Assembly (NCBI GenBank): GCA_020833005.1
Contig: JAJHRD010000001.1
Location: 4,260 to 68,259 of the forward strand
Direction of reading: 5' to 3'
DNA: 64,000 nucleotides
Source of the DNA: Thermoproteota archaeon
GTDB lineage: Archaea; Thermoproteota; Methanomethylicia; Culexarchaeales; Culexarchaeaceae
The translations under genes were made by a program, and so were the position numbers. Below are positions 6,279 through 61,421 of this stretch, in pieces. The notes under the pieces are model-generated. The model did not search any database and was not told where the DNA came from. It saw nothing but the letters and a program-made list of their open reading frames with translations. Position 1 is the first letter of the stretch. The number at the start of each line of letters is the position of its first letter.

Positions 6279-6391
6279 GCCGGGGTAGCCTAGCGGTAAG
6301 GCGCAGGCCTCGAGATAAATACATTTAAAGAGGGCTGGAAAGCCTGTGTCCCTTCGGGGACTCGCGGGTTCAAATCCCGCCCCCGGCGCCA
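6279..6391 (+). tRNA. tRNA-Ser(CGA) with a 26-nt intron at the canonical 37/38 position; CCA encoded
   Basis: Acceptor GCCGGGG/CCCCGGC, G73, and a long variable arm GUCCC-UUCG-GGGAC. Exons are identical to tRNA-Ser(GGA) at 24775-24861 except for the anticodon first base. Anticodon CGA at 6311-6313. Confidence 0.8.
6315..6340 (+). other. tRNA intron (26 nt; boundaries ambiguous by 1 nt)
   Basis: This is the extra 26 nt relative to the intron-less twin gene. The bulge-helix-bulge is relaxed: central helix CUCG/CUGG has one mismatch, and the 3' bulge is AAA. Confidence 0.7.
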
Positions 6392-43487: not shown

Positions 43488-44045
43488 ATGCTTGAATTTA
43501 TAAATGAAGCATCAAAAATAATATCAGATACAGAACTCATAAAAGCCACTGTAAAGAGGACTTCAACCCCAATGGAACTAGGGGGGATGAAAATAAATTT
43601 AGATGCTGAAGGCATGGAAATACTAATACCAAAATGGGCATCAGATAAAATGATGAAAGATGGATTAATAGAAGTGAAGTATATTGAAGAACTTGGGATA
43701 AAGGATCTGAGAAAAACCCTTTGGAAAGAATCTAGGGAAACCAATTTAACGAAAATAGATCCTCAATTCTACATGAAAGCAAGAGCCACAATTAAAAGGT
43801 TAATGGATGATATAAAGAGAGATCCAACCCCGGAAAAAATCCAAGAGGAAAGGAAATATAGAGATGCATTCATGGATATAGTGAATTGCAGAATGCAGAA
43901 AGTATTGCAATTGGCAATAACAGAATCAATACCACAAACAATAAGTGAAAATATGACCATAGAAGAGAGAATACTGCTAAAAGAGATAAAAAGAATGCTA
44001 ACAACATGGAAAGATCAAGTAACAAGAATAGGTGATGAAACATGA
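43488..44045 (+). CDS. gins23: GINS subunit, Gins23-type (B-domain first, then A-domain)
   Basis: N-terminal ILIPKWASDKMMKDGLIEV (B-domain-like); C-terminal helical YRDAFMDIVNCRMQKVLQLAI (A-domain-like). A 4-nt overlap with the mcm start matches the crenarchaeal gins23-mcm arrangement. Confidence 0.7.
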   Translation: MLEFINEASKIISDTELIKATVKRTSTPMELGGMKINLDAEGMEILIPKWASDKMMKDGLIEVKYIEELGIKDLRKTLWKESRETNLTKIDPQFYMKARATIKRLMDDIKRDPTPEKIQEERKYRDAFMDIVNCRMQKVLQLAITESIPQTISENMTIEERILLKEIKRMLTTWKDQVTRIGDET

Positions 44046-46096: not shown

Positions 46097-46102
46097 TGGG
46101 GG

Positions 46103-48259
46103 ATGAGTAAGATTAAGATAAGAGAGCTACCAATACCTAAAATAATAAGGGACATATTGGAAGCTAATGGGATAATTGAACTATACCCACCACAAGAACA
46201 AGCTGTAAGAAGCGGACTACTTAATGGGGAAAACATAGTGCTAGCCATACCTACAGCTGCAGGAAAAACGCTTGCAGCTGAATTAGCCATAACAAAAAGA
46301 TTACTTGAAGAGGGAGGAAAAGCAATATACCTAACACCATTAAAAGCGCTTGCCTCAGAAAAGTATGAGGAATTCAAAAAGTATGAAAACGCTGGATTAA
46401 AGGTCACCATAAGCACAGGAGATTATGACAACCCAGAACCTCAACTCAAATACTACGACATTATAGTCATGACAAACGAAAAGGCAGATAGCATCCTCAG
46501 AAACAAACCTCCATGGATGAATGAAGTTAAAGTGGTGGTGGCAGATGAAATACACCTAATAAATGATGATGATAGGGGACCAACCTTAGAAGTGGTTTTA
46601 GCAAAACTATTATCAACAAACCCACAATCTCAAGTTATAGGTTTAAGTGCAACAATAATGAATGCAGAGGAAATAGCTGAATGGTTAAATGCTAAACTAG
46701 TGAAAAGCCATTGGAGACCAGTACCATTAAGGAAGGGGGTCTACGTAAATGGGAGAATAATATATGATGATGGAAGTATAATGGAGGTTACAAGGGAAAA
46801 GATGGACTCATACCAAGCATTAACGAAACAAACCCTAGAAGATGGAGGTCAAGTGCTAATTTTTTCAAACACAAGAAACGATTCTAGGGAAACAGCATTC
46901 AAACTAATACCACTAACATCAAAACACTTAAAAGCTGATGAGAAGAGGGAACTCGTAAAAATATCCAACGAAATACTATCATCGGAGGAAAGCACAAGGA
47001 TAAGTGAAGAATTAGCTACATGCATTAAGAGTGGAGTGGCATTCCACCATGCAGGATTATCAGCAACCCATAGGAGCATAATTGAAAGGGCATTCAAAGA
47101 GTTTAAGATAAAAGTTATATGCGCAACCCCCACTCTGGCTGCAGGGGTAAATCTTCCAGCAAGGAGGGTGATAGTAAAGAGTTATTATAGATATGATAGT
47201 TCAACTGGATACCAAATGATACCAGCATTCGAATATCATCAAATGGCTGGAAGAGCTGGAAGGCCGAAATATGATGAATGGGGGGATGCAATACTAATAG
47301 CCAAAAACATGCAAGAACAAGAATTCTTAATGGAAAACTATGTAAGAGCACCTCCAGAAAAGATATGGTCTAGACTGGCATCAGAATCAGCATTAAGATC
47401 GCATACGCTTGCAATAATAGCTACAGAATATGCAAAGAGCGAAGAAGAGGTTATGGAATTCATAAGAAGGACATTCTATTATAAACAGTATGGTGAAGAA
47501 AGACAGATAAGAAATGTACTGAGAAGGGTTGTGGGATTTCTGGTGGAAAACGATATGATTAGAGTTATTAATGAAAATATTTATCCAACAAAACTTGGAA
47601 TGAGAGTATCACAACTATACATCGACCCACTATCAGCCGTACGAATCATAAATGGACTTAGAGGGAGGAATAGTGCAAGTGAACTTGCATACATACACTT
47701 AATATGTATGACCCCAGATATGCAGAGATTACATCTCAATAGGAGGGATAGGAAGACGTTAATGTCGAAATTATTTGAAATTGAGGGTGAGCTACTCATA
47801 AATGTAGAGGACCCTACAGACGAATTTGAACAACTAACAATGCTACAAGCACTCAAAACTGCCATGATGCTAAATGATTGGATAAATGAAGAGAAGGAAG
47901 ATGCAATAATAGAGAAGTATGATGTAGGGCCTGGAGACATATACTCAATAGCACTCACAGCACAATGGCTAATGTACTCAGCCACGGAAATAAGCAAATT
48001 AATGGGATTCGTAAACCACATACAAAAATTGACTGAGCTAACCAGTAGACTGGAATATGGATGTAAACCAGAGCTATTAGAGCTAATAAGTTTAAAGGGG
48101 ATAGGGAGAGTTAGAGCTAGACTACTGTACAGAGCAGGATACAAAACCATTGAAGATCTAAGGAAGGCACGTATAGAAGACTTAAAAAGAATACCACTAT
48201 TCGGAGAGGAAACCATAAGGAAGATAAAGGAACAACTGGAGGAAAGAGGGTTACGCTAA
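46103..48259 (+). CDS. hel308: Hel308/Hjm Ski2-like DNA helicase
   Basis: PTAAGKT, DEIH, SAT, HHAGL, and a C-terminal HhH-like GIGRVRARLLYRAGY. Starts 6 nt after the mcm stop. Confidence 0.9.
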   Translation: MSKIKIRELPIPKIIRDILEANGIIELYPPQEQAVRSGLLNGENIVLAIPTAAGKTLAAELAITKRLLEEGGKAIYLTPLKALASEKYEEFKKYENAGLKVTISTGDYDNPEPQLKYYDIIVMTNEKADSILRNKPPWMNEVKVVVADEIHLINDDDRGPTLEVVLAKLLSTNPQSQVIGLSATIMNAEEIAEWLNAKLVKSHWRPVPLRKGVYVNGRIIYDDGSIMEVTREKMDSYQALTKQTLEDGGQVLIFSNTRNDSRETAFKLIPLTSKHLKADEKRELVKISNEILSSEESTRISEELATCIKSGVAFHHAGLSATHRSIIERAFKEFKIKVICATPTLAAGVNLPARRVIVKSYYRYDSSTGYQMIPAFEYHQMAGRAGRPKYDEWGDAILIAKNMQEQEFLMENYVRAPPEKIWSRLASESALRSHTLAIIATEYAKSEEEVMEFIRRTFYYKQYGEERQIRNVLRRVVGFLVENDMIRVINENIYPTKLGMRVSQLYIDPLSAVRIINGLRGRNSASELAYIHLICMTPDMQRLHLNRRDRKTLMSKLFEIEGELLINVEDPTDEFEQLTMLQALKTAMMLNDWINEEKEDAIIEKYDVGPGDIYSIALTAQWLMYSATEISKLMGFVNHIQKLTELTSRLEYGCKPELLELISLKGIGRVRARLLYRAGYKTIEDLRKARIEDLKRIPLFGEETIRKIKEQLEERGLR

Positions 48260-48269
48260 TAATGAAAAT

Positions 48270-48695
48270 TTAAAATGGTTGTAAGCGAACATTTATTTTC
48301 CCATTAACATTTGAAATGCAAAGGAACATGAATTCACGCGATAAATTAACACTTGAATCCACATAGCATACATCAATCAGGTTCGGGAGATCCAATTTAA
48401 ACTCCCCACGATCACAATAGAATATCAAAGAATTCTTAAATATGGAAACCCTAAACCCAATAAATCTAGTGGGAACAGATAGTTTAATGCAGATACTGGA
48501 ATTTAAACCAAGATTTCTACATGTTTCAACTCCATAAACTATAGATTCCCTAACACCATATATAAAGGAGTAATAGACTCTATCGTTGTTGATAATATTA
48601 AAGTAAAAGCTGCCCATGGACATTAGAAGTAGCAATGTAGAGAATATTAAGCCAAAATTTAATATAGAGTTGGAAATTACATTCCTCATATTCAT
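48270..48695 (-). CDS. Small protein with an N-terminal hydrophobic segment (possible minor pilin-like), last gene of the pilus-like operon
   Basis: MNMRNVISNSILNFGLIFSTLLLLMS. 4-nt overlap with the upstream gene. Confidence 0.45.
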   Translation of the reverse strand: MNMRNVISNSILNFGLIFSTLLLLMSMGSFYFNIINNDRVYYSFIYGVRESIVYGVETCRNLGLNSSICIKLSVPTRFIGFRVSIFKNSLIFYCDRGEFKLDLPNLIDVCYVDSSVNLSREFMFLCISNVNGKINVRLQPF

Positions 48696-49366
48696 CCACC
48701 AACCACATTAACAGATATTATTATGCAATTAAATATCAATGGATTAACTCTACTGGAATTAAAAGACCAATTAAATGAATATGCTGGACTATATAGTTGC
48801 ATATGCAAAATTTTTGGAGTAGTAGGGTTATAGGATCTTTTCATAATGTTAACATGTGATGTGAAGGAATATTCCCCATATGATATTTTCAATGAACCAT
48901 TAATATTGAACAAAACAACTCCCACAAAAACTGAATTTCCACTAAAAATTATCTTTGGACGAACGCTGAGAATCAAAGTCCCCCCACTTGCCATTATTGA
49001 ATAGAAGAAGTATGTCCGATTACCTTCCTCAATTATCACATTCCCATATGGGTACAGGGAATTGTGGGAAATATATTTCAAGCTAATTGAGAAAGAAGAT
49101 AGCAGAGTTTCATTATCAAAATTTATAATTTGAAAACCATCAACATAAAATTCCAATACACCATACTTTAGGGAAAAACGGTGAACCACCATTTTACCAT
49201 ACTCCATACCATCAATAAGCTTATGGAAGAATGATTTCACATCATTGACTTCGGCAAGCATTAACACATAGGTGTTATAAGATGTATAAAACTGTAAACA
49301 AACTGAACCAACCAGCAATATCAATCCAACCAGAATAATTGATGAAGGTATTTCAGCAGAGGTCAT
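48692..49366 (-). CDS. Protein with an N-terminal hydrophobic segment (possible pilin-like), unknown function
   Basis: MTSAEIPSSIILVGLILLVGSV. 4-nt overlaps on both sides. Confidence 0.45.
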   Translation of the reverse strand: MTSAEIPSSIILVGLILLVGSVCLQFYTSYNTYVLMLAEVNDVKSFFHKLIDGMEYGKMVVHRFSLKYGVLEFYVDGFQIINFDNETLLSSFSISLKYISHNSLYPYGNVIIEEGNRTYFFYSIMASGGTLILSVRPKIIFSGNSVFVGVVLFNINGSLKISYGEYSFTSHVNIMKRSYNPTTPKILHMQLYSPAYSFNWSFNSSRVNPLIFNCIIISVNVVGG

Positions 49367-50037
49367 ATGGAAACCACATCCACAAAAACAACCTCAAAAA
49401 CCAATACAACAAGACCACTTAACGAAAGAACTGTCGAATAATAATTGTTACTGGAAATCAGCAATACTTTAAGCTGACCAGTACACTCAAATATATAAGT
49501 GGACTTAAGTACATCGCCAACTCTCAAAACAAAGTTTCCATTAATAGTGCCAGAACCTCTAAAAACCATCAATCTCAAATATATTCTAGAACCAAAATTA
49601 TGCAGTGAAAGTGCTGGTATAAGGTATACGTGATCGCCATACTCATATATTGAGAGACAAGTGCCATTAATCTGAATTAATTGATCATGATATACTTTCG
49701 AAGAGGAAGCATAAACTTGTATGCCTAGAATTGAAGATGTAAAATTCCCTAAACGTACATCATTAACGATGACCATCATATTGCACCGATCATTCAATTC
49801 AATAATATAATGTGAATTGGATATTATGACTGAATCATTGACGAAAGAAAGTTCATCAGCCTCTAACCTCACGTATCTAAAGAAGTCTACCACATTACTA
49901 GATCTTAAATTGCATTCCAAATTTCTCAAATAAACCATTCCATAATGAAGGCACATGAAGGATAATGAGGTAAAAGTCATGAATATAATTAGACTAGTTA
50001 AAATATTTGAAACCCCCTTACAATTTAAATAGCCCAA
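49363..50037 (-). CDS. Pilin-like protein with a class III signal-peptide-like N-terminus
   Basis: MGYLNCKG|VSNILTSLIIFMTF: basic residue, Gly, then a hydrophobic helix. Confidence 0.5.
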   Translation of the reverse strand: MGYLNCKGVSNILTSLIIFMTFTSLSFMCLHYGMVYLRNLECNLRSSNVVDFFRYVRLEADELSFVNDSVIISNSHYIIELNDRCNMMVIVNDVRLGNFTSSILGIQVYASSSKVYHDQLIQINGTCLSIYEYGDHVYLIPALSLHNFGSRIYLRLMVFRGSGTINGNFVLRVGDVLKSTYIFECTGQLKVLLISSNNYYSTVLSLSGLVVLVFEVVFVDVVSI

Positions 50038-50683
50038 TACATTTCACCCCCCTCCAATCAATCACACTAAATGTAAAAGCATGCACATTCAATGGAATAA
50101 CGAAGTGAACCATGTAGCGTCCATCCATTAAACTTTCATAGTCTGGATTGAAAGTGAAGGTGCCCCCATTATAGATGTATGAAACTATGAATACTGGTGG
50201 TTTTAACAGAACTTCAGAATCTCCAAAAACCTCAACAACCATTTTAACATCATTGAATACTGGAACATATGAGTTTGAAAGTGTAATGTTCATTATTTTA
50301 AAGCCGAGAGAGCAATTGTAGCTAAATGTATATTTACATCTATACTTGAAATCATATACTTGTAAGGTGGCTGAAGCCCCTACATACCCATCCTTTAAGA
50401 TGACATTATATGATGACAACTCAATAATTAATGGGTAAAAATCCATAATGTCATGTAAATTTAGGTTTAGACGCTTAATGAATTCTCCACCATCAACATG
50501 AAATACTAATGCATCGCATATTGACCTTTTGAACATCAAATTTAAAGCTTGAATATAATTAGATGAAACATCTACACCTATTCCATAGTATGGGGTAAAA
50601 TAAACCAATTGATAAATTAATGCAACATATAATACTGCAAACAATATTAGAATCTGTCCTCTACATCCAAACTTGCAAGACAA
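50018..50683 (-). CDS. Pilin-like protein with a class III signal-peptide-like N-terminus
   Basis: MSCKFGCRG|QILILFAVLYVALIY. Confidence 0.5.
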   Translation of the reverse strand: MSCKFGCRGQILILFAVLYVALIYQLVYFTPYYGIGVDVSSNYIQALNLMFKRSICDALVFHVDGGEFIKRLNLNLHDIMDFYPLIIELSSYNVILKDGYVGASATLQVYDFKYRCKYTFSYNCSLGFKIMNITLSNSYVPVFNDVKMVVEVFGDSEVLLKPPVFIVSYIYNGGTFTFNPDYESLMDGRYMVHFVIPLNVHAFTFSVIDWRGVKCIGLFKL

Positions 50684-51068
50684 TTATCCTAGTCACCCCC
50701 CTAAACTTCAAAATAAATGGCGTATTGACCATGAAATTGAAACTCTTAGAATTAGAAATGTATGAGAATATCAAATTATGATTATCATCATATACTAGTA
50801 AATTGAAGTTCAATCCCTGTGGGATAAGGGGTTTAATATAACTAACCAATAAACTCCAATCCCCATTATAAACGATTACACTTAAATCCCCACTGGAATC
50901 AAGCGTATATAAAGCGTTAAATGCTATGGATTGAAGATGGAAATAATCCATGGAGTAATTATAATTTATTATTATGGGGATTGTCATACTGAAATATGAG
51001 ATTATCAGCATTGCGAGAAGAACTTCAATTATTCTTGAAAAACCGCGATCAGCCATATTCACCACCAA
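50661..51068 (-). CDS. Pilin-like protein with a class III signal-peptide-like N-terminus
   Basis: MVVNMADRG|FSRIIEVLLAMLIISYF. Confidence 0.55.
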   Translation of the reverse strand: MVVNMADRGFSRIIEVLLAMLIISYFSMTIPIIINYNYSMDYFHLQSIAFNALYTLDSSGDLSVIVYNGDWSLLVSYIKPLIPQGLNFNLLVYDDNHNLIFSYISNSKSFNFMVNTPFILKFRGVTRIIVLQVWM

Positions 51069-51084
51069 GATGCTAAACTATACA

Positions 51085-52389
51085 TCATGATGATTTAGTT
51101 CTATTGAACTCAGACCTCCACATGCCAACACCACCCTCCCCAATCCCAATTTTACATAGCAATAAGTGATGTGCACCGATTCTCAGAAAACTATATGTAA
51201 AACAGTCTTCATCTAGAAATCCTATGGAAACCTTCAATTCTGGAATAAAAGCAACGTGAAATACGCCATTAAAAACGTAAACAACTACGTAGGGGAAACC
51301 AGCATTGGGCAAAGTATTCACATGGATACTCTTATCAAACCATAATAACCAAATGTTATCAGCATTAAACCCTGATAGATATGAACTCCGATAAGATGAA
51401 GATAGAATATTGTTTAATCTTAAGGTAGATGGGTAATTCCATCCACCAAAGTAAACATACACCTTTCCACTTGAACTTAATTTCAAAAATAACCTCACAT
51501 TACTTCCCTGAAATTCTCTTGATAGAGGGACATTGAAAGTGAAATTCTTAACAATAGTGGAATTAACCGTAAAGGAGGAGTTTGCCAAAATGGTTGACCA
51601 ATTGTAATCAGGTCCACATACTCCAAAAATGGTATGGAGATCTCCAAGGCCACTAGCAAATATTGAGAATCCTAAAGAACCATTAGAAATACTAATTGGA
51701 TTGCTAAAGACTCTACTGTAAAATGATATTCCATTCTCATCAAGTAATCTAGTTGATGAAGATCCAAGAACACCATCAACAATGCAATATTCGCCGCCAA
51801 AACTGGATAAATAGAATTGCATTGGCTGTGCGATAATGGAGTTTACTTTGAAATCTCCATATAAACCAATACCAAATAATTGACCATATCTAACAAATAC
51901 AACCATCAATTGAGGCTTAAACTTTAATGGGATACTCCCAAAGCCATTATCCAAAATTATATGATAATTATTTAAAGTTCCATTATAAAACAAGTAGACA
52001 AAAGCTTCACTACCGCAAGGTTTCATGTCGATGACATTGAATGATCGTATAATTATGGATTCATCTTTAAAATCCACCTTAACATCCAGAGGTGGAGAAA
52101 TTTGAATGGAGAATACGTAATCCCCCATGTTAATAGCCCCCCTCAAATACTCGTAATCCAAGTAATAGCCGAAGACTTTAGAGTAATTGGGAGATAGAGC
52201 TTGAAGGATGAATGGATCAATCCTCCCTTCAGGAGCTATTGAGTATAATAAGCGATTGATTACTACATCGTTGGGATATGTTGCCATATGAAGGTATCTA
52301 TCCGCAATGGAGTTCAATATACTTGCACTTGATGAGAATAGTAAGAATATCATGAATCCGGCGAAAACATATTCTACAACGTCTTCCAT
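51085..52389 (-). CDS. 434-aa protein with an N-terminal hydrophobic segment, unknown function (pilus-like operon)
   Basis: MEDVVEYVFAGFMIFLLFSSS. Beta-rich and Asn/Ser/Tyr-rich. Overlaps the upstream gene by 16 nt. Confidence 0.45.
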   Translation of the reverse strand: MEDVVEYVFAGFMIFLLFSSSASILNSIADRYLHMATYPNDVVINRLLYSIAPEGRIDPFILQALSPNYSKVFGYYLDYEYLRGAINMGDYVFSIQISPPLDVKVDFKDESIIIRSFNVIDMKPCGSEAFVYLFYNGTLNNYHIILDNGFGSIPLKFKPQLMVVFVRYGQLFGIGLYGDFKVNSIIAQPMQFYLSSFGGEYCIVDGVLGSSSTRLLDENGISFYSRVFSNPISISNGSLGFSIFASGLGDLHTIFGVCGPDYNWSTILANSSFTVNSTIVKNFTFNVPLSREFQGSNVRLFLKLSSSGKVYVYFGGWNYPSTLRLNNILSSSYRSSYLSGFNADNIWLLWFDKSIHVNTLPNAGFPYVVVYVFNGVFHVAFIPELKVSIGFLDEDCFTYSFLRIGAHHLLLCKIGIGEGGVGMWRSEFNRTKSS

Positions 52390-55300
52390 GAATAATCACC
52401 ATTAACCCATAAACCCTCAAAAATTTCATGTCCAAATGCGTAAATGCTAAACATTATCTTATGAACCCTTCTTGGGAGGGATAGTGGATAGGATTCTATG
52501 ATTCCATGAGTCAATTTCATGGTAACGGATGATGAGTAGAAGAGTTCATCAAACTCATCATAGAATAACATATTCAATGTGCAATTGAAATCCATGAAGC
52601 TCGATTTTGAAGCTAAAGTGAAATTAACAAATCCACCATAAACATTAACATATGACAACACACCAATACTTTCACTCCAACATAAATTGCAGAACTCATC
52701 CACTCTAGAAACCCATGCATTGCCAATATCCCTACAAAGCAACTTAATTACAAAGCTTCGGCAAAATGGTATCTTGAAGGTTATGGAGGCAACCCCCTCA
52801 TCATCAGTTATACAATTAAGTTTGGTGATGACGGTATCATTGCAATGAACAATTAATAGCAACTCTACATGTGCTGGATCACCATTAAAGTAGTGGAACT
52901 TCAATTTGATGTCGAAGGAGAAATCCTTTGCCACAAATTTTAGGATATCACATTGTATACGTTTGAATGGAACAACCACATATGATGAACTTGAATTCGT
53001 AGACCTAATGATGAATGGGGAGTTAACATAATATACGAAGAATTCAAGCGAATCATTGAAGTTAATTGGAGGAACGCTGAATTTTGCATTCCCAAAATCA
53101 TCAATTGGGGAACTCTTAAAATACCCATATGTAGAGTTCAAGATTAGCTCAAGAACCCCTCCCCTAAATCTTAGACTCTCATTGTTGAGATTCCAAGTTA
53201 AATAGAACAGTACATTATTGTAATCATAATCATTATTTACGGTGTAATACACTTTTAACCCATCTACATAGAATCTACTCCTACCAACAATACGTCCAGA
53301 ATCATCTGAAAGGAGGACTTCATAGGAGCCTAAGGGGCAATTTATACCATTTAAATAAACTATAAGTTTACATAATCCATTTTCATCAGTTGATATCGGT
53401 ATTAATGAGATGTTAAATTCACTGAAAACAACTTTCGGGAGTATTAGTGTAAGATTCTTCAGAGGCTGATAATTGATCATGATCCCCATAGCTTCATATG
53501 GTAGGAACCTATACTCCGAATGCCAAGAACCACGCTTCCAGTTGACATAGTACAATTCGATGGATGCAGGCTGCTTAATTTCAATGGAGAACGTACATGA
53601 ATTATCATATGAGTTTGAGAATGCATGTAATGTAAAGTTGAATATCCCAGTTAAATTTAATGATGGAGTTACACGTAGCTCAACAATTTCAACGGGATCA
53701 GAAACAGATATGTAAACTGGGTTCATGGAAAAATTGTATTTGAAGAAGTTTGAGTAACTCGCATCACATGAAACTTCGAGATAAACATAATCGCTGAAAC
53801 CGTTTATGGAAGTTAAGTTAACATGGAATAGTGCATCCTCACCCTTGAGGATGGATATAAATGTTGGGTATATGGAAACATTAAAGTATTGTCCCTGCTT
53901 AACTTCCAATTTAAATGTGTTACTATCAACTATCAATCCATTATCATCAATGCCTCTCACAATCAGGTTGTAAACCCCTTCAATAGCAGAAGGGGGAGCG
54001 TAAACGTCGAGAACAACACTTCTCTCATATGAATTGATGGTTAATGGGTTTGTGGAGAATTGATATGAACAGTTCGGGGGGATACCCTCAACACTTAATT
54101 TGACCACACCACTATAACCATTGATTGGAGTTAAAGTTACATTGTATAATACATGAGACCCCTTTAAGACGCTATTGAAAGTTGGGTTCACCGTAATTGA
54201 ATATGAAGGGGCTACGTAACTTTCAACATTCAACACTATCCTCCTACTCTGACCATCAGAACCTATTGCTGTGAGTTCAATGTAGCAATCACCAACATCA
54301 TAGGGTGTGAAGTCCACGTGGAATTGGAATGGAGGGATCCCAGTGGTATTCCCCACCACATTATAACTAAGCCAATTTGGAACAGGCCCTATTGTAACTT
54401 GCACGGGAAGTCCATAGCCATATAGATCGCCAACATATATGTCAACCCCCCTTACGGAGCCTAATGGTATTCTAATGTAACTGTATGAGGAGCTTATGGA
54501 GAATGATGGTATTGTTAAATTGAAATCTTTTGAAGAAGGTAGGTAGCTACTATCCCCATCAAAAACAACACTTAGAGTTCTCACACCATACTGTATATCA
54601 TTGGGGATAATGTATAGGAATGTAAATGACCCATCAGAGCTAGTATAGTTCGATGATATAAACGTGAAATCCATATACAAATTGATTTTTGCATTTGGAA
54701 TACCACTACCACGACTATTTAGTAAGCGTCCACTCAAGTATATTGGGTCTCCCACATACCCCTTAGATGAACTTATAGAGCCAACAATATATGAACTCTC
54801 AAAATAGCCTATGGACAACGTTATCCTTAAACCATAACTTCCACTATAGAAGTCTGCAAGGGAATATGCATAATCCTCTAAGGCTCCAGTGGCTATGCTT
54901 CTAACAACCATTGTAACTGAAAAGTCAAGTCTATCACCCTTAGAGACACTTAAATCCAAATCTTGATAGACTGAAATGTATTGATCATTAAAAACATATT
55001 GATCTTCACCCGAATAATATAGGGTAAGGGATTTTGAAGCCAATGTAACCCTATAATTCATGAAATCCACATAGACTCCAATGCTGGCTTCAGCTGAATA
55101 TGTGTTGGGGAGACATACGGATTTAACATACAGTTTACCCATAAGCGTATATTTAATCGATAACTTCTTGATAACCCCACTAAACGGTGAAATGAGGTAA
55201 CCTTTAAAAATTAGAGTTAAATCAGCTTCATTCAATAAAGAACCCACATCCTTCGTGGCGGAACACACCGCTTTAAGTAAACCTCGATTCTTATCATAAC

Positions 55301-55460
55301 TATAAGTGAAGCTCCCAGTACCACAAGTATAGTAGAAGGGTTGAAATTCACTAAATGGTGGAGCAAGAGGATAATACAAGATGCAATTGGAAATGGGAAG
55401 TGAAAGCAATAATGTTAGTATGATCATTAACGGTAGAAACAGAAACCCCTTCCTCACCAT
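52374..55460 (-). CDS. Giant (about 1028 aa) secreted or pilin-like adhesin candidate with Ig-like repeats
   Basis: Preferred start MVRKG|FLFLPLMIILTLLLSL at 55460. Has a CarboxypepD_reg-like segment (GDPIYLSGRLLNSRGSGIPNAKINLY...SSDGSFTF) and two tandem roughly 105-aa repeats (xNPTFxSxLKG...LTxINGxS). Confidence 0.55.
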   Translation of the reverse strand: MVRKGFLFLPLMIILTLLLSLPISNCILYYPLAPPFSEFQPFYYTCGTGSFTYSYDKNRGLLKAVCSATKDVGSLLNEADLTLIFKGYLISPFSGVIKKLSIKYTLMGKLYVKSVCLPNTYSAEASIGVYVDFMNYRVTLASKSLTLYYSGEDQYVFNDQYISVYQDLDLSVSKGDRLDFSVTMVVRSIATGALEDYAYSLADFYSGSYGLRITLSIGYFESSYIVGSISSSKGYVGDPIYLSGRLLNSRGSGIPNAKINLYMDFTFISSNYTSSDGSFTFLYIIPNDIQYGVRTLSVVFDGDSSYLPSSKDFNLTIPSFSISSSYSYIRIPLGSVRGVDIYVGDLYGYGLPVQVTIGPVPNWLSYNVVGNTTGIPPFQFHVDFTPYDVGDCYIELTAIGSDGQSRRIVLNVESYVAPSYSITVNPTFNSVLKGSHVLYNVTLTPINGYSGVVKLSVEGIPPNCSYQFSTNPLTINSYERSVVLDVYAPPSAIEGVYNLIVRGIDDNGLIVDSNTFKLEVKQGQYFNVSIYPTFISILKGEDALFHVNLTSINGFSDYVYLEVSCDASYSNFFKYNFSMNPVYISVSDPVEIVELRVTPSLNLTGIFNFTLHAFSNSYDNSCTFSIEIKQPASIELYYVNWKRGSWHSEYRFLPYEAMGIMINYQPLKNLTLILPKVVFSEFNISLIPISTDENGLCKLIVYLNGINCPLGSYEVLLSDDSGRIVGRSRFYVDGLKVYYTVNNDYDYNNVLFYLTWNLNNESLRFRGGVLELILNSTYGYFKSSPIDDFGNAKFSVPPINFNDSLEFFVYYVNSPFIIRSTNSSSSYVVVPFKRIQCDILKFVAKDFSFDIKLKFHYFNGDPAHVELLLIVHCNDTVITKLNCITDDEGVASITFKIPFCRSFVIKLLCRDIGNAWVSRVDEFCNLCWSESIGVLSYVNVYGGFVNFTLASKSSFMDFNCTLNMLFYDEFDELFYSSSVTMKLTHGIIESYPLSLPRRVHKIMFSIYAFGHEIFEGLWVNGDYSWKTL
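53571..54206 (-). repeat. Two tandem roughly 105-aa protein repeats inside the giant ORF (aa about 433-536 and 539-644 of the track ORF)
   Basis: YSITVNPTFNSVLKGSHVLYNVTLTPINGYSGVVKLSVEG... versus FNVSIYPTFISILKGEDALFHVNLTSINGFSDYVYLEVSC.... Both end in a (K/S)(L/I)E(V/I)KQ motif. Confidence 0.6.
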
Positions 55461-57142
55461 AACCTTACACCACCATAAATTCCAAGGATGCAAATGTAGC
55501 AAGATATCAATGCATGCTTAAACCCCCCAAAAATGGTTCCACTGGAAATCTTCCCAACGAGTATGCCAATGAAGAATGAAGTTAAAATTATCATGGAACT
55601 TATTGTGGAATTCAACTCCATGACCACACTTTTATCAATGCTAAGGAGGATACTTTGACCTGGAATGAGATATCCAGCTCCAAAGAAGCCAAGGAACTTA
55701 ATTAACTGGGAGGAAACGAATATTAGCATGAGCGAAGAAAAGTATCCCACCAAAACATAGAGTTTCAATTCATTTCCAATTCTACGCTTAAATTCATAGT
55801 AATCCCAGCAGAACTTCGAGAGATGTGAAAAAATTTCAGGCCTACCACCCCCAGTGGATATAGCCTCCCCAAAAAGCCAAAACACCCTCTTAGCAAACCA
55901 TGAATTAACCCTAGAAATCAGATCATTGAATATATCAACTATAGACTTCATCGATGATGTCAAAGAGGAATGTATGTTATGAATAATATCATCAAGAAGT
56001 TTACCATAAGACCTACTTAAAGTAAGTGTCAAAGCATTCTCAACACTTAAACCAATCTTAACATAATCTGATATATCCCTAATGAACTTAGGAAGACTTG
56101 AATCGATGGATCTGCATTTAATAGCATTATATTCATGAAATATGCTTAAAGGAACCAATAAAACTGTTGAGGAAAGTGTGAAAAGAAGGGGGAAATCCAC
56201 CCTTAAATTTAGAAGGATAAACAATGTCAAGACAAAGGGAGGGATCGAATAAAGCAATATGCGCTTATAATTACCAAACCTAAATGGGTATTTCAATTGG
56301 CTAGAATCAATTATTATGAAAATCAAAAACGCCATTAATGGAGTAAAGATGAAAGTATAAAGTTTTAGGAATAACAATGCATTAAATGGATTCATAATCA
56401 TAAATATACCAATTAATCCGAGCGGTAGGAAGAGGAATAATGTTACTATGAGATCGCCAAATATGCTCACATCACTGGAGAAATGCTTAAGCTTACTTGA
56501 AAGCCGCTCACCCAATTTAAGTGTATAATCCATTAAAGAAGATGATGGATAACCACCACTCTCAACAGACCTAATATATGAATCGAGATAATCCCTAAAA
56601 TCTTTACATGGATGATTATAAGCCAAGAACTTCATTGATTGCATGGGATCTTTACTGAAAAACTTATAATCAGTTAGGAAGATTTCACTCTCAAATTTAA
56701 ACCATGGAAAAACATTTTGTGAAGATAAACTTTCAAACCCTCTAAATATTGGGACGTGAGATAAACTCAGCATACTAAAATAAGTGGATATGAAGGGAAG
56801 CTCGGATTCAACACCACTGGCACGTAAAGACATCCTAACTCTCGGATAGAGATAGAAGACTAAAAATGCAGAAGACATGCAGAGAGGTGGCAGTATTAAA
56901 AATAGAAATGACGAAAATAACGTTAGAAGAAGAATTGATGCAATTGTGGATGCTGGTAAAATTATTAGTAGGAGGTAAAATAGGAAGATTGAACAATACC
57001 CTTGAGGACTTATCTTCAAACCGGAACGAACTATAATTTCATTTAAATTAAGCTTACGAGAAATTACGTTTGCAAGGTTGCCGAAAATCCTATATGATAG
57101 GGAGATGGGAGTTAATTGAATCATTCTACCTCTCCAAAGCAA
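55454..57142 (-). CDS. Polytopic membrane platform protein of type IV pilus/archaellum systems (FlaJ/TadC/PilC-like)
   Basis: 562 aa. Two blocks of TM segments separated by soluble helical domains. Lies immediately downstream of, and overlapping, the secretion ATPase. Confidence 0.7.
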   Translation of the reverse strand: MLWRGRMIQLTPISLSYRIFGNLANVISRKLNLNEIIVRSGLKISPQGYCSIFLFYLLLIILPASTIASILLLTLFSSFLFLILPPLCMSSAFLVFYLYPRVRMSLRASGVESELPFISTYFSMLSLSHVPIFRGFESLSSQNVFPWFKFESEIFLTDYKFFSKDPMQSMKFLAYNHPCKDFRDYLDSYIRSVESGGYPSSSLMDYTLKLGERLSSKLKHFSSDVSIFGDLIVTLFLFLPLGLIGIFMIMNPFNALLFLKLYTFIFTPLMAFLIFIIIDSSQLKYPFRFGNYKRILLYSIPPFVLTLFILLNLRVDFPLLFTLSSTVLLVPLSIFHEYNAIKCRSIDSSLPKFIRDISDYVKIGLSVENALTLTLSRSYGKLLDDIIHNIHSSLTSSMKSIVDIFNDLISRVNSWFAKRVFWLFGEAISTGGGRPEIFSHLSKFCWDYYEFKRRIGNELKLYVLVGYFSSLMLIFVSSQLIKFLGFFGAGYLIPGQSILLSIDKSVVMELNSTISSMIILTSFFIGILVGKISSGTIFGGFKHALISCYICILGIYGGVRLW

Positions 57143-58709
57143 CCTTAATCACCTCAGACTCCCTCGAATAATAGAAGAGTCTAAGACGATCTATGAAATC
57201 ATCATATTCACGTATACCATGAACATGCAAATCCTCAAGAAACCTCAACCTAACATTCAATTCACGTGAAATATCATTCATTGAAACCCCCCTCTCCTCA
57301 GCAATCTGCCTTATAAGGAAGCTTGAGGATAAAAGTGAATCAATAGTTGATGGTACGAAGACATCACGGGCTGGAATCCATTTGAAAACTTCAACATAAT
57401 CTTCAGGGGACTTTATCTCATAAATGCCCACAACCCTCCTTTTAACACTCTTAAAACCCTCAATCTTCTTCAACACGATGGCACAGTTCATTAATGGAAT
57501 ATATATTGGGGAAACATTCATAGGTGGGGAGGATAGGCGTTTGATTGCAGAAGCTATTGAATCAGCATGCATTGTACACATACATCCATGCCCTGTAGCT
57601 GCAGCTTGAAACAATACATAAGCCTCTTCACCACGAATCTCCCCAACCACAATGTAGTCAGGTCTTTTACGCATAGCCACCTTAACAAGATCAAAAAGTG
57701 AAACCTCAAATTGCTTATCATCCATAAAGTATGCATGCCTAGCTATAAGTGGCTCCCAACCCTTAACTGGAATTTTAATTTCAGGAACATCCTCAATGGA
57801 GTCAACAGACCAGTTTGGTTTAAACAATGCACTTAAAGCGGATAATAGGGTTGTCTTACCACTCGCAGTACCCCCAAGTATAAATATGTTCTTCCTATTT
57901 TCAATAAGCAACCATAAATAGCAAGCCATAAGAGGACTCAATGTTGAGAAATCATATATTAAATGCATAACGGTATATGGTTTCTCCCTAAACTTCCTGA
58001 TGCAAATGTTTGTGGATTTAGCGCTAACCTCCCTTCCATAGCATATTGAAACCCTATGCCTATCAGGTAGTATGGCATCAACTATTGGAAAAGCTATGGA
58101 GACATGCTTACCACACATGTGTGTAAGCTTAGAAGCCAGTGAATTCAACTCATATTCATTTAAAACGATATTAGTTGTAAGCCAATCCATATGCCCAAAC
58201 CTCCTATGCCAAACCATAAATGGAGTATCTGGACCAACACATTTAATATCCTCAATCTCCGGATCTTGAATTAACGGCTCAATATAACCATAACCCAAGT
58301 CTCTAGCTATATAATATGCAACACGATTCAAACTTAATTCATAAAGGTCTTTAAATCCATAATTCTCAGCCACCCTAAGTATCTGCTCATGTATATAACT
58401 GAATAAGTCGACATTAGAACCCAAAGTAGGGGGCATCTTAAATTCAAATCGCAATATCTTAGACAATTCCCTGTAAACCTTCAATTCCAAATCCATAAGC
58501 TCAGGTTCAAACACCATGTATAATCCTTCACCATCATTTTCTACAATAACCACATTAACCTGATCATTACAAACCTTATACGATGCAAGTATCGTGGCAT
58601 CTACTGGAACCTTAGATCTAAAAATCTTAAAATCAGCAGGATACTCCATATATGAAGACCCACGCTTAAAGAAACGTTTAAATAACATTATCCGCAAATC
58701 CCCTCTCAT
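57126..58709 (-). CDS. Type II/IV secretion-family ATPase (FlaI/PilB/VirB11-like)
   Basis: Walker A GGTASGKTT, Walker B-like DYIVVGEIRGEEA, His-box-like GHGCMCTMHA. Confidence 0.85.
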   Translation of the reverse strand: MRGDLRIMLFKRFFKRGSSYMEYPADFKIFRSKVPVDATILASYKVCNDQVNVVIVENDGEGLYMVFEPELMDLELKVYRELSKILRFEFKMPPTLGSNVDLFSYIHEQILRVAENYGFKDLYELSLNRVAYYIARDLGYGYIEPLIQDPEIEDIKCVGPDTPFMVWHRRFGHMDWLTTNIVLNEYELNSLASKLTHMCGKHVSIAFPIVDAILPDRHRVSICYGREVSAKSTNICIRKFREKPYTVMHLIYDFSTLSPLMACYLWLLIENRKNIFILGGTASGKTTLLSALSALFKPNWSVDSIEDVPEIKIPVKGWEPLIARHAYFMDDKQFEVSLFDLVKVAMRKRPDYIVVGEIRGEEAYVLFQAAATGHGCMCTMHADSIASAIKRLSSPPMNVSPIYIPLMNCAIVLKKIEGFKSVKRRVVGIYEIKSPEDYVEVFKWIPARDVFVPSTIDSLLSSSFLIRQIAEERGVSMNDISRELNVRLRFLEDLHVHGIREYDDFIDRLRLFYYSRESEVIKVALER

Positions 58710-58822
58710 CCAAAATTAGAAGTGAAAATAACGTATTTAAAACCAAAAACGTCATGCAATATAAACGCCATACATACTACAACAGCATTTTAATACCAAA
58801 ACATATAGCAAAAAGGTGAAGT

Positions 58823-59824
58823 ATGTTTAAACCCAGTACAAAAGAATTATCAGAAAAGATTGATTGGATAATGCAAATACTCAGTGAAATAAATGGGAAG
58901 GTAAATGACAACACCAGTAGAATAATGAAGCTTGAAGCGGAATTAAAAAGCATTCGACTAGATGAAATTGGTGAAGGTATAAAAGCCATAAATGAAGGAA
59001 TATACAAAGTAAAGGAAGCTATTAATGAAGCTGAAAAGATGAGGGAGATAATATCCACACTTAAAAACCTAAATGTAAAGGGGGAATTTATAGGTAATAT
59101 AGATGAATTAAGGAAGAGCATCGATAGTGTAATGCAACAATTGCTAAAAATAGGAGAAAACGTAGATACAAACATGAAAACATTGGCAGACAAAATAAAT
59201 AGTATACAAACAATACATCAGGAAGTCATGAAGAATGTCATAAATATAAAGGATTTAGAAGTAAACGCATTAAAAAATATATCCACAATAACCATGATGC
59301 AAAAGGAAATAGGAGAAATAGAAAGGGATGTAAAAAGACTACTGGAAGAATATAAAGAAATTATAGATAAAACAGCAGCAACAAAAATTGAATTAAACAA
59401 ATTAATGAATGAAATAGAGAGGAGAGAGGGAGAAAGCAAAAGGAAACTGGAGGAAGCAACGATATATGAAGAGAAGATTAAAAGGAGGGAGGAAGAATTA
59501 ATTGAAAGAGAGAAGCTACTCACACAGCTAACAAACACATTAATTGAAAAAATAAAGGGGTACGAGGAAATAATGAAACTAACAAACTCAAGAATAACAT
59601 ACTTAAAAGTTTTAGAAGAGAAGAGTAGGGAAATTGAAAATAGGGTTAAAGAGTTAAAAGAGGAGAGGGAAAAACTGGAAAGGGAAGTCAACATTCTAAT
59701 AAAAAGGAGGAATGACCTCGAAGAAGAAGTATGCAAATTAAATGATATGAAGACAAACATGGAGAGAAATCTAAAGAACATAATGGTGGCAATGAAAATT
59801 GAGCAACCCAGAACTAACATATAA
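58823..59824 (+). CDS. Long coiled-coil protein (Glu/Lys/Ile-rich), unknown function
   Basis: 333 aa, heptad-like throughout (e.g. EKSREIENRVKELKEEREKLEREVNILIKRRNDLEEEV). Divergent from the pilus-like operon. Confidence 0.5.
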   Translation: MFKPSTKELSEKIDWIMQILSEINGKVNDNTSRIMKLEAELKSIRLDEIGEGIKAINEGIYKVKEAINEAEKMREIISTLKNLNVKGEFIGNIDELRKSIDSVMQQLLKIGENVDTNMKTLADKINSIQTIHQEVMKNVINIKDLEVNALKNISTITMMQKEIGEIERDVKRLLEEYKEIIDKTAATKIELNKLMNEIERREGESKRKLEEATIYEEKIKRREEELIEREKLLTQLTNTLIEKIKGYEEIMKLTNSRITYLKVLEEKSREIENRVKELKEEREKLEREVNILIKRRNDLEEEVCKLNDMKTNMERNLKNIMVAMKIEQPRTNI

Positions 59825-60524
59825 AATCCTAGATTACTTAAAGAGGGAAATATCAAGAGAAACCACGAAAGGGAAGTTAACATTCACCTCCAAAAAGATA
59901 GGTGTAGAGATAGGGGAAAGGGGGGAAATAAGGAAGATAAACGCTATTCTAAATATGCTAACAAGAGAGGGGATAATAAAGTTCGATGAAAAAATAAAAC
60001 GCTACTACATAGGCAAAGAAGATGTAAAGAGAGTGGAAGAATACCAAATAAAACTTGAGAAAGCACTACTACTAGAATACCATAAACCTCTAAGCAACAT
60101 AGAGCCACCCATAGACGTATACAAAATAGTTAAGGGAATGAAGCAGAGAATAGCGCAAGCGAAGAGGAAGAGCATAATAAAACCAATATACGATGTAAAC
60201 TGCCCCGAAAAATACACCATAATATTCAGGACATACAAAATGCCAGGATTCATAATAAATAATGGTGGCGAGAAAGTCTTCGAAGCATACAGGCTGGGAT
60301 TCATGAAACCAATAAAAGCAATATATAGAGGGGAAGAAATGCTGATAAGAAGGAGATGGGGTAAGGAAATAATAATCACAAAGAATGGTGGAGAGGAGAT
60401 TGCTAAAATGAAGGGATATGGAATTGAAAAAGCCATATTCACATATGAAGAAGCACTAAGTGAAATTAGCATACCAATAGCAATAGCATTGTTTGCAATA
60501 AAACAATTTGACGTAATAATTTAA
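59799..60524 (+). CDS. Hypothetical protein with an N-terminal winged-helix-like region
   Basis: YKILDYLKRE...INAILNMLTREGIIKFDEK. TTG start overlaps the coiled-coil gene by 26 nt. Confidence 0.4.
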   Translation: MSNPELTYKILDYLKREISRETTKGKLTFTSKKIGVEIGERGEIRKINAILNMLTREGIIKFDEKIKRYYIGKEDVKRVEEYQIKLEKALLLEYHKPLSNIEPPIDVYKIVKGMKQRIAQAKRKSIIKPIYDVNCPEKYTIIFRTYKMPGFIINNGGEKVFEAYRLGFMKPIKAIYRGEEMLIRRRWGKEIIITKNGGEEIAKMKGYGIEKAIFTYEEALSEISIPIAIALFAIKQFDVII

Positions 60525-60604: not shown

Positions 60605-61120
60605 ATGAGTAACAGTAGAGGAATAAGTGCAATAATGGTCTCAATAATACTACTAGCAGTATCCATTGGAATGGCGGTAGCATACGCATCAACCATGATG
60701 GGATGGTTTGGAAGCGCAATGAACATAGTGAAGATAGATGCATCAGACTCAAAAATAATTCTAAACCCATCCACAAATCAAGCAAGAATACAAATAGTAC
60801 TAAGAAACATGGGAACTACAACCATAAAAGTAAGTAGCATCTCAATAGACACCGAGGGGCAAAAAGCTATTGTAAACTTCACCAGCAATAATGCAGTAAT
60901 ATACCTGCAAGGTCAGCTTCCAAGTAATGGAAATGTATACGGATCTTCGAAGGATGTAACTATCTCCAATAACCAGTTGTTAATACCGCAAGGTTGCACA
61001 GCAACCATATACTTTGAAATAACATCATCAACGCAGCTGTGGAAGCTTGGCAATGTATATAGGGCATTGGCATTCTATGATGGAGGCATATTCGACTTTA
61101 AGATAAGTGCAGTGTACTAA
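60605..61120 (+). CDS. Archaeal type IV pilin-like protein (class III signal peptide)
   Basis: MSNSRG|ISAIMVSIILLAVSIGMAVAY is a canonical archaeal pilin/flagellin-type N-terminus, followed by a beta-rich globular domain. Confidence 0.75.
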   Translation: MSNSRGISAIMVSIILLAVSIGMAVAYASTMMGWFGSAMNIVKIDASDSKIILNPSTNQARIQIVLRNMGTTTIKVSSISIDTEGQKAIVNFTSNNAVIYLQGQLPSNGNVYGSSKDVTISNNQLLIPQGCTATIYFEITSSTQLWKLGNVYRALAFYDGGIFDFKISAVY

Positions 61121-61130
61121 AAAATAAAAT

Positions 61131-61421
61131 TTAAATCCTTTTTTTCTCAATTTCAAGTTTTCCGCATACCACATCTAGAATTTCATTTAAAATTATTTTC
61201 AATTCCGTGAGAGATTCGTATATTATCATGTCTCTCTGCAACAATTCATTTCCAATGGAGTTTGATTTCATGAAATCTATAAGCTCAGAAATAGCATTCT
61301 TTATATATGCAACATCCATCTTAACCTCTTCTATTGAACTCTCCATTTTAAACAATTTTGCTAATATCTCCTTATCACCCAAATGGGATCCCAAAATAAA
61401 AATCCCTATGAGATATTTCAA
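61131..61421 (-). CDS. Small helical/coiled-coil hypothetical protein
   Basis: 96-aa ORF. The likely start is the internal MESSIEEVKMDV (about 61346). No recognisable family. Confidence 0.3.
   Translation of the reverse strand: MKYLIGIFILGSHLGDKEILAKLFKMESSIEEVKMDVAYIKNAISELIDFMKSNSIGNELLQRDMIIYESLTELKIILNEILDVVCGKLEIEKKRI
61139..61145 (+). terminator. Oligo-T tract after the pilin gene
   Basis: TTTTTTT lies 19 nt after the pilin stop. Confidence 0.35.

Follow-up and report, generated by a model that had tools for sequence, protein, structure and literature searches.

A nine-gene operon of an uncultured thermoproteotan archaeon (Culexarchaeum-like, family Culexarchaeaceae; contig JAJHRD010000001.1, positions 4,260 to 68,259, a stretch of 64,000 nucleotides referred to below as the window) encodes a type IV pilus-like machine that is neither an archaellum nor an orthologue of the Bas or Ups systems. 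The operon occupies positions 48270-58709 of the window and comprises an assembly ATPase, a platform protein, a protein of about 1,000 residues (ORF3, here called the giant; ORF, open reading frame) and six smaller proteins, ORF4 to ORF9. Beside it, on the opposite strand, lies a conserved unit of three genes that includes a prepilin of 171 aa (amino acids), which we call pilin171. The reading that we favour, with moderate confidence, is that this is the pilus locus of the Culexarchaeia: an adhesive archaeal type IV pilus, equipped with a set of minor pilins for priming or for the tip and with a Sec-exported adhesin made of multiple immunoglobulin-like (Ig-like) domains.

The core machine

The first two genes of the operon specify the motor and its membrane platform. 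The ATPase carries the Walker A motif GGTASGKTT, matched the Pfam family T2SSE (E value 2e-28; 99.6 bits against a cutoff of 24.9) and found its structural counterparts in the PDB in GspE2 of A. fulgidus (2OAP, 1.3e-74) and FlaI of S. acidocaldarius (4II7, 6.8e-66). The platform gene adjoins the ATPase gene with a 17-nt overlap; its product matched T2SSF over two stretches (3e-11; 43.8 bits, cutoff 25.2), and a hydrophobicity scan flagged about 11 hydrophobic segments in it. The locus thus has the hexameric secretion ATPase (PilB/FlaI/GspE) and the PilC/TadC/FlaJ platform of the superfamily of type IV filaments, together with its prepilin substrates, represented by pilin171 and ORF6 under a strict signal pattern and by ORF5 and ORF7 through a conserved glycine at position -1.

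Neither core protein reached the equivalog cutoff of an NCBIfam model for FlaI, BasE, UpsF, BasF or FlaJ. The ATPase scored 323 bits with FlaI (cutoff 550) and 302 with BasE (cutoff 1000), and the platform 151 bits with UpsF (cutoff 400) and 90.5 with BasF (cutoff 1300); the FlaJ model gave 33 bits against a cutoff of 550. Pilin171 matched UpsA at 8.7e-9 (35.6 bits, cutoff 130), and the models of UpsE and UpsX, which an Ups pilus also requires, found no match. No archaellin or KaiC-like match was detected among the 13 locus proteins scanned. On these model scores we rejected membership of the archaellum, Bas and Ups systems.

Gene layout and operon structure

The features of the operon and of the divergent unit are as follows (SD, Shine-Dalgarno; AF2, AlphaFold2; an arrow marks the predicted cleavage site).

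57126..58709, minus strand: assembly ATPase, 527 aa, FlaI/GspE2-type (T2SSE, PDB matches, Walker A)
55454..57142, minus strand: platform, 562 aa, polytopic, TadC/FlaJ/UpsF-like (T2SSF; SD motif GAGGTGAT before TTG start)
52374..55460, minus strand: giant (ORF3), 1028 aa from ATG (1042 from the longest start), predicted exported all-beta protein, candidate adhesin (AF2, Foldseek, N-terminus comparison)
51085..52389, minus strand: ORF4, 434 aa, large leaderless pilin-like protein (SD motif GGTGAT before ATG)
50661..51056, minus strand: ORF5, 131 aa (135 from the TTG start), prepilin-like, minor pilin candidate (SD motif GGTGGTGA before ATG 51056)
50018..50683, minus strand: ORF6, 221 aa, prepilin-like (conserved [RK]G↓Q site)
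49363..50037, minus strand: ORF7, 224 aa, prepilin-like, ORF8 paralogue (conserved [KRN]G↓[VIL]S site)
48692..49366, minus strand: ORF8, 224 aa, leaderless ORF7 paralogue (start MTSAE..., N-terminal hydrophobic helix)
48270..48695, minus strand: ORF9, 141 aa, small, N-terminal hydrophobic helix, no Gly site, last gene of the operon (GGTGG directly before ATG)
58710..58822, between the two units: divergent intergenic region, 113 bp (AT-rich TATA-like boxes, one per direction; putative promoters)
58823..59824, plus strand: coiled-coil protein, 333 aa, soluble (generic coiled-coil Pfam matches only)
59799..60524, plus strand: 241-aa protein, no family match (conserved hydrophobic C-terminal tail)
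60605..61120, plus strand: pilin171, prepilin, 171 aa, candidate major pilin (canonical class III signal)

Recomputed from the coordinates, six junctions overlap by 17, 16, 23, 20, 4 and 4 nt. With ATG 55460, which is 49 nt from the longest TTG start, as the start of the giant, the platform and the giant overlap by 7 nt, and the gap between ORF4 and ORF5 measures 16 nt from the TTG start of ORF5 or 28 nt from ATG 51056. An SD motif of the GGTGA/GGTGG type stands 3-12 nt 5' of every internal start, which favours ATG 55460 for the giant and ATG 51056 for ORF5. The ATPase gene has no SD motif and is preceded by a TATA-like TTTAAATA about 30 nt 5' of its ATG; it is probably the first, leaderless gene of the operon, and the TATA-like box, as read from the sequence, may act as its promoter. 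Such a box in place of an SD motif is usual for the leaderless first gene of an archaeal operon, and here that gene is followed by internal genes with SD motifs.

A preliminary description of this DNA had reported nine overlapping minus-strand ORFs forming a type IV pilus-like operon, with an ATPase of the FlaI/PilB type, a FlaJ/TadC-like platform and no archaellum genes. We confirm these points: the ORFs lie at the reported coordinates and all of them are kept in related genomes, the core assignments rest on the matches given above, and the operon is supported by those matches together with the overlaps and SD links. Its junction figures were also reproduced, the 7-nt overlap requiring ATG 55460 and the 16-nt gap requiring the TTG start of ORF5.

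Class III signals and the small pilin-like proteins

The same description had noted a hydrophobic helix near the N-terminus of every protein after the platform, and the hydrophobicity scan agrees for all of ORF3 to ORF9. Its count of four class III signal sites fared less well. We compared N-termini across up to eight orthologues and found a conserved Gly(-1) site, among the operon proteins, in ORF5, ORF6 and ORF7 only. ORF5 has a four-residue leader, an invariant G↓FSRIxE with Glu at +6 and a C-terminal FRGxxRI motif; ORF6 has a conserved [RK]G↓Q class III site, and the conserved [KRN]G↓[VIL]S site of ORF7 is class III-like. The fourth site, RKG↓F of the giant, is replaced in orthologues by MVKKFSFF, MVKRLFLL or MIKKKSHIK. 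A strict FlaFind-type pattern, a check that the description had proposed, was passed by ORF6 and pilin171 only; ORF5 and ORF7 fail at +3, and the giant, ORF4, ORF8 and ORF9 have no site. The picture of one giant plus six smaller pilin-like proteins therefore holds as regards the six N-terminal helices, but a conserved prepilin site is present in only three of the six.

The other three begin without a leader. ORF4 starts directly with MExV[VI]E[YH][VL]F, conserved in eight orthologues and followed by the hydrophobic helix, and an upstream in-frame start is impossible; to judge from its sequence, it is a leaderless protein resembling an already mature pilin (Glu6). ORF8 is likewise leaderless, with Glu5 in most orthologues, and so is ORF9, which starts MNMRNVIS... 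Profile-profile comparison of ORF7 with ORF8 by hhalign (probability 88.7%, E value 2.6e-6, 208 columns) identifies ORF8 as an ORF7 paralogue. The N-terminus of ORF7 also resembles that of pilin171 (41.7%), and profile-profile comparison detected no relation between the other protein pairs. ORF4 to ORF9 had no Pfam or NCBIfam match.

Beyond the N-terminus, the hydrophobicity scan flagged further segments in ORF3 to ORF9 only at residue 364 of ORF4 and residue 199 of ORF7, which we read as buried beta-strands. Sequons for N-glycosylation number 1.3-2.2 per 100 aa in ORF3, ORF4, ORF7, ORF8 and ORF9, with 2.2 in ORF8, compared with 0-0.9 in cytoplasmic neighbours, and this raised density supports an extracellular location of these five proteins.

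The giant protein

From its sequence, the N-terminus of the giant looks like a Sec-type signal or signal anchor, not a class III signal. An AF2 model built from a nine-sequence alignment (predicted local distance difference test score, pLDDT, 69.5) has an N-terminal helix at residues 2-19 and an otherwise all-beta chain, with confident beta or Ig-like domains at about 220-730 and 830-1025 and poorly modelled, family-specific segments at 20-215 and 734-831. The protein is thus predicted to consist of a family-specific N-domain, some five Ig-like domains and a C-terminal beta-sandwich region. Foldseek searches of the PDB returned generic beta-sandwich arrays only (hydin-type, and the MG domains of alpha-2-macroglobulin and complement; template modelling score about 0.1), and neither the model nor Foldseek revealed a propeller, an enzyme or a functional domain.

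When 1.84 billion representatives were searched exhaustively with HMMER, relatives spanning the full length of the giant formed only five clusters, besides fragments; more than 3,500 other matches cover only its central repeats (about 220-630). The protein has 19 N-glycosylation sequons, its C-terminus reads ...DYSWKTL, and the hydrophobicity scan found no C-terminal transmembrane (TM) segment. We considered whether it could be a surface-layer (S-layer) protein. In the PySLP-like S-layer protein of Thermoproteota, Ig-like domains in tandem precede a C-terminal TM helix, after which comes a basic tail whose last residue is Lys; the giant shares the Ig-like domains, but its sole hydrophobic helix is N-terminal. 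A different PySLP-like S-layer candidate, with the C-terminal TM helix and basic tail, has been published for the Culexarchaeales. For want of a C-terminal anchor and in view of that other candidate, we rejected an S-layer role and regard the giant as a candidate adhesin.

In Culexmicrobium-type genomes ORF4 is enlarged to 741-772 aa by three extra Ig-like repeats that resemble the central repeats of the giant, and the giant's conserved C-terminal tail, ...EGLWVNGDYSWKTL, is absent from the orthologues there; the two changes may have co-varied. The enlarged ORF4 genes are located as follows.

L004, 16345-18639: enlarged ORF4
L006, 16392-18617: enlarged ORF4
L014, 2394-4670: enlarged ORF4

A divergent unit with the likely major pilin

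The preliminary description had found no archaellin and no prepilin peptidase, which is true inside the interval that it covered. It missed a canonical prepilin 1.9 kb upstream of the operon on the opposite strand (60605-61120) and, with this likely major pilin, two further conserved upstream genes. The trio is divergent from the ATPase gene and is kept in every complete related locus; the coiled-coil and 241-aa genes overlap by 26 nt, and the pilin171 gene follows 80 nt further on. Pilin171 has the canonical class III signal SRG↓ISAIMVSIILLAVSIGMAV and passes the strict FlaFind-type pattern. Its profile match to AapB (8Q30; E value 0.17) is weak and not significant, and covers the N-terminal half only. 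Among the exported proteins of the locus it is the one best conserved, with 46-48% identity across genera: against the Culexmicrobium-type locus L004, pilin171 of the window retains 46% identity and ORF3 to ORF9 22-33%. A conserved pilin171 beside diverged ORF3 to ORF9 fits a structurally constrained major subunit with fast-evolving minor or tip parts, and we interpret pilin171 as the likely major pilin of the system.

The coiled-coil protein is a candidate cytoplasmic scaffold or regulator. The 241-aa protein had no Pfam, NCBIfam or PDB match; it has a hydrophobic segment at residue 223 and an invariant C-terminal PxxxALFAIKQxDV tail, and by eye only its N-terminus appears winged-helix-like. 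Convergent with the pilin gene is a small helical ORF (61131-61421, minus strand; 83-96 aa) without a family match. BLAST placed it in Culexarchaeum-type and intermediate loci (L001, L002, L009, L010 and L011) and gave no match in Culexmicrobium-type loci, although an 89-aa gene is called at the position in L004 and L005.

The window was also screened for a prepilin peptidase (A24 family; PibD, FlaK or EppA) by looking for polytopic ORFs with a GxGD motif. No candidate was found in the 64 kb, the sole such ORF encoding a 16-TM protein that we take to be a pyrophosphatase. Prepilin peptidases of the A24 family are commonly unlinked to pilus loci.

Conservation and distribution

We traced the locus through the contigs of ATPase relatives and by scanning 185,579 species representatives with a giant-protein profile. 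About a dozen relatives of the ATPase are close, sharing 63-95% identity with it, and the others do not exceed 46%; its exact sequence, when looked up, matched no record. The contigs and the profile scan returned Culexarchaeia only (GTDB Methanomethylicia/Culexarchaeales), the carriers being Candidatus Culexarchaeum nevadense, Candidatus Culexmicrobium cathedralense and four further metagenome-assembled genomes. A motif of ORF5, built from a six-sequence alignment, was used to scan 241 million metagenome records and recovered five loci, all of the same clade. The accessory proteins showed no relatives outside the clade in the library-wide search with the giant and the metagenome motif scan with ORF5, searches that did not extend to ORF4 and ORF6 to ORF9.

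Order, length and frame of all nine genes are maintained in seven related genomes, which represent at least two genera. Every complete related locus recovered is syntenic, with the nine genes and the divergent trio, so that the synteny search proposed in the preliminary description returned the whole cluster throughout. Across complete loci, identity to the window drops as low as 62% in the ATPase, 39% in the platform, 33% in the giant and 22-33% in ORF4 to ORF9. The conservation of order, length and frame at such low identity indicates real genes, not chance ORFs.

The two nearest ATPases outside the clade (46% identity in L007, 44% in L008) belong to differently organised loci. These are smaller, with two to four small genes and a protein of 419-554 aa upstream of the ATPase-platform pair, and may represent a second family of uncharacterised pilus loci.

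Public gene calls in L001 and L002/L003 truncate or split the platform (459 and 472 aa instead of 562), ORF6, ORF7 and ORF9, because these genes start with TTG; the frames are intact. Where the giant has a public name at all, it is 'hypothetical' or 'carboxypeptidase regulatory-like domain protein'. The present analysis corrects both the name and the four truncated or split genes.

Base composition and neighbouring genes

The operon has a GC content of 35.5%, against 38.3% in the rest of the window, and is the window's most AT-rich 10-kb stretch; the preliminary description had judged it by eye to be more AT-rich than the neighbouring replication and ribosomal genes. GC at the third codon position is 0.29-0.37, equal to the 0.31-0.38 of the neighbours, and the deficit lies at the first position; the AT-richness thus stems from the hydrophobic, Asn/Ser/Tyr-rich composition of the proteins. 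Both the third-position values, which match those of the neighbours, and the synteny of the locus throughout the class led us to reject horizontal transfer as the cause of the AT-richness.

Convergent with the end of the operon are genes for MCM and a Hel308-type helicase (44042-48259, plus strand), Hel308 identified by domain matches on the L001 orthologue and MCM by eye from the sequence. The Hel308 gene ends 10 nt from the ORF9 stop, and MCM adjoins Hel308. Culexmicrobium-type loci end at an HSP20 gene instead; as the neighbourhood is not conserved, we rejected a functional link to Hel308 and MCM. Elsewhere in the window, a transfer RNA match (6279-6388, plus strand) spans 110 nt against a 71-position model and probably contains an intron.

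Comparison with known systems

The closest layouts are the complex pilus loci of the TACK archaea (Thaumarchaeota, Aigarchaeota, Crenarchaeota and Korarchaeota) that Makarova, Koonin and Albers (2016) described from Thermoproteales and Desulfurococcales (clades 4E/4G/4B/4A). These consist of an ATPase, a TadC protein, a large signal-peptide protein interpreted as an adhesin or a minor pilin, small minor pilins and a separately encoded major pilin of the PilA type, and the same authors note in such loci proteins that are S-layer-like or adhesins, and a bindosome that has additional secreted components. The Culexarchaeia locus shares the ATPase followed by a TadC-like platform, the large signal-peptide protein and the fast-evolving small pilin-like proteins; in the complex TACK loci, too, the PilA-type major pilin often lies apart and extra cytoplasmic, coiled-coil or membrane components occur. 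It differs in having neither a FleN/MinD ATPase nor a C-terminally anchored S-layer-like protein and in its three leaderless pilin-like proteins, and the Culexarchaeia lie outside the 2016 census. The unusual gene complement that the preliminary description had set apart from Ups, Aap and Bas is thus distinct from Ups and Bas by their models, but its layout is one already known from the complex TACK loci.

With the Aap, Ups and Bas systems of Sulfolobales the locus has in common a FlaI-like ATPase and a platform, a class III pilin of the PilA family (AapB/UpsA-like) and the lack of a retraction ATPase, a secretin and PilMNOP. Those systems, however, carry two or three pilins and no giant protein, and the locus misses the equivalog models widely and has no AapX or UpsX equivalent that we could see. 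As regards the archaellum, FlaI-type models come closest to the ATPase and the platform is related to FlaJ, but archaellin, FlaH, FlaF/G, FlaX and FlaCDE are all missing.

A further parallel is with bacteria, in which large Sec-exported adhesins (PilC/PilY1, MshQ) are encoded beside minor pilins and dock on the tip complex. Here, too, a large Sec-exported protein (about 1,000-1,200 aa in such systems) stands beside a block of minor-pilin-like genes that evolve fast, as bacterial minor pilins do, and ORF4, the largest pilin-like protein, is the immediate, translationally coupled neighbour of the giant. The likeness does not extend to sequence homology; the genes stand in the reverse order, the giant coming first, a leader peptide is missing from three members, and the giant has beta-sandwich arrays in place of the C-terminal beta-propeller of the PilY1/PilC tip adhesins.

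A model for the locus and its alternatives

In the model that we favour, an unlinked peptidase of the PibD/FlaK type (A24) would trim the prepilins pilin171 and ORF5 to ORF7, and the ATPase, docked on the platform, would lift pilins out of the membrane. ORF4 to ORF9, which are of low conservation, would assemble by their N-terminal helices into a complex of low copy number for priming or for the tip, upon which pilin171 would polymerise as the fibre. The giant, kept in a fixed ratio with ORF4 by translational coupling, would be carried at or near the tip as an adhesin, a placement analogous to that of bacterial PilY1 and MshQ with their minor pilins, and the divergently encoded coiled-coil and 241-aa proteins would be cytoplasmic or membrane-bound accessory or regulatory parts. 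Such a pilus would probably serve to attach the cell, in hot sediments, to surfaces or other cells. There is precedent for this scheme, as Makarova et al. (2016) modelled the complex TACK pilus loci similarly.

A more specific version, which we put forward only tentatively and consider somewhat unlikely, is that the locus encodes an archaeal counterpart of the minor-pilin/PilY1 tip-initiation complex. The processed ORF5 to ORF7 and the leaderless ORF4, ORF8 and ORF9 would bundle by their N-terminal helices, with the conserved Glu5/Glu6 of ORF4, ORF5 and ORF8 contributing to the bundle, prime pilin171 and hold the multi-Ig adhesin docked on ORF4.

Several observations weigh against the pilus model. 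The departures of ORF5 and ORF7 from the strict pattern at +3 are joined by the lack of a basic residue at -2 in five of eight aligned ORF5 orthologues. ORF4, ORF8 and ORF9, whose pilin fold is hypothetical, have no profile similarity to pilin171 and, as noted, no family match, and a single-sequence AF2 model of ORF4 was uninformative (pLDDT 34); ORF4, with its acidic N-terminus, could be inclined to insert into the membrane the other way round. The giant lacks a PilY1-like beta-propeller and its conserved tail is not kept in Culexmicrobium-type orthologues. Pilin171, transcribed as a unit of its own, could belong to another machine, and the window holds no peptidase candidate.

One alternative is a short pseudopilus or surface-assembly machine, akin to type II secretion or the bindosome, in which, in place of a long pilus, a membrane-proximal stub of the pilin-like proteins exports, positions or anchors the giant, perhaps with ORF4, in the envelope, while pilin171 belongs to another system or is a minor part. 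In favour of it, the operon has many pilin-like genes and no major pilin within it, the giant gene sits translationally coupled at its middle, the BasE score of the ATPase is near its FlaI score (302 and 323 bits), and loci of this kind contain the S-layer-like, adhesin and extra secreted components noted by Makarova et al. (2016). We nevertheless think this unlikely: BasE and BasF are far below their cutoffs, the locus has no conserved neighbours that are solute-binding proteins with class III signals or an ABC transporter (L004 and L005 alone have an Opp system), a canonical and well-conserved prepilin is always adjacent, and the Sec-type signal of the giant makes the machine unnecessary for crossing the membrane. 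That same signal, and Ig repeats of a generic kind that recur in over 3,500 large, unrelated surface proteins, might instead mark the genes after the platform as ordinary envelope proteins, either S-layer or Sec-dependent and membrane-anchored, that are co-transcribed with a filament machine to which they do not belong; ORF4, ORF8 and ORF9 without a prepilin site, and a pilin fold unsupported by any family or structure match, would agree with this. It is an improbable account, given the conserved Gly(-1) sites of ORF5, ORF6 and ORF7, the paralogy of ORF8 with the prepilin-like ORF7, and the tight overlaps and strict co-occurrence of the nine genes, which hold in all genomes with even one of them. 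The S-layer candidate of the Culexarchaeales, moreover, has a C-terminal TM helix and basic tail, and the giant has neither.

A last alternative concerns function, not the mechanism of assembly: an Ups-like pilus for cell aggregation and DNA exchange. The best NCBIfam matches of the platform and pilin171 are indeed UpsF and UpsA, and Hel308, with MCM adjoining, lies 10 nt from the operon end in the window. Both scores, however, are far below the equivalog cutoffs, the helicase neighbourhood gives way to HSP20 in Culexmicrobium-type loci, no UpsX-like gene is present, and Ups loci have neither a giant nor a multi-pilin set (Makarova et al., 2016), which makes such a role very unlikely.

Significance

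Most of what is known of archaeal type IV pili comes from a few Sulfolobales, haloarchaea and methanogens, and to our knowledge their minor pilins, like the structures at the tip or cap, have essentially not been characterised. For Aap, the cryo-electron microscopy paper proposed AapA as a cap or a component of the machinery by way of speculation only. The Culexarchaeia genome paper makes no mention of pili, archaella or adhesion. The preliminary description had suggested an uncharacterised surface-filament or adhesion machine; undescribed it is, although archaeal type IV pili that have a large signal-peptide protein and lineage-specific minor pilins are a kind already known from Makarova et al. 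(2016). Its presence in this lineage had not been described before, nor had its seven families of accessory proteins, its pilin-like members without a leader or the divergent unit conserved beside it.

The locus offers a compact and strictly conserved set of 12 genes from a class without a cultured member. It clearly separates a single conserved fibre pilin from a block of pilin-like proteins that evolve fast, and adds to this a dedicated large adhesin-like protein and pilin-like proteins without a leader peptide. Its main value is as a well-defined test case of whether archaeal pili are primed and tipped like bacterial ones, and it is suited to multimer structure prediction and heterologous reconstitution. 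A LUCA-age origin (LUCA, last universal common ancestor) has been proposed for the tip-initiation mechanism in the literature on bacterial minor-pilin tips. If the tip-initiation version of our model were true, licensing of the tip by a large adhesin would be common to Bacteria and Archaea, and a defined archaeal gene set would be at hand to test that proposal. For the organisms themselves, the locus suggests that surface attachment is part of the ecology of the Culexarchaeia.

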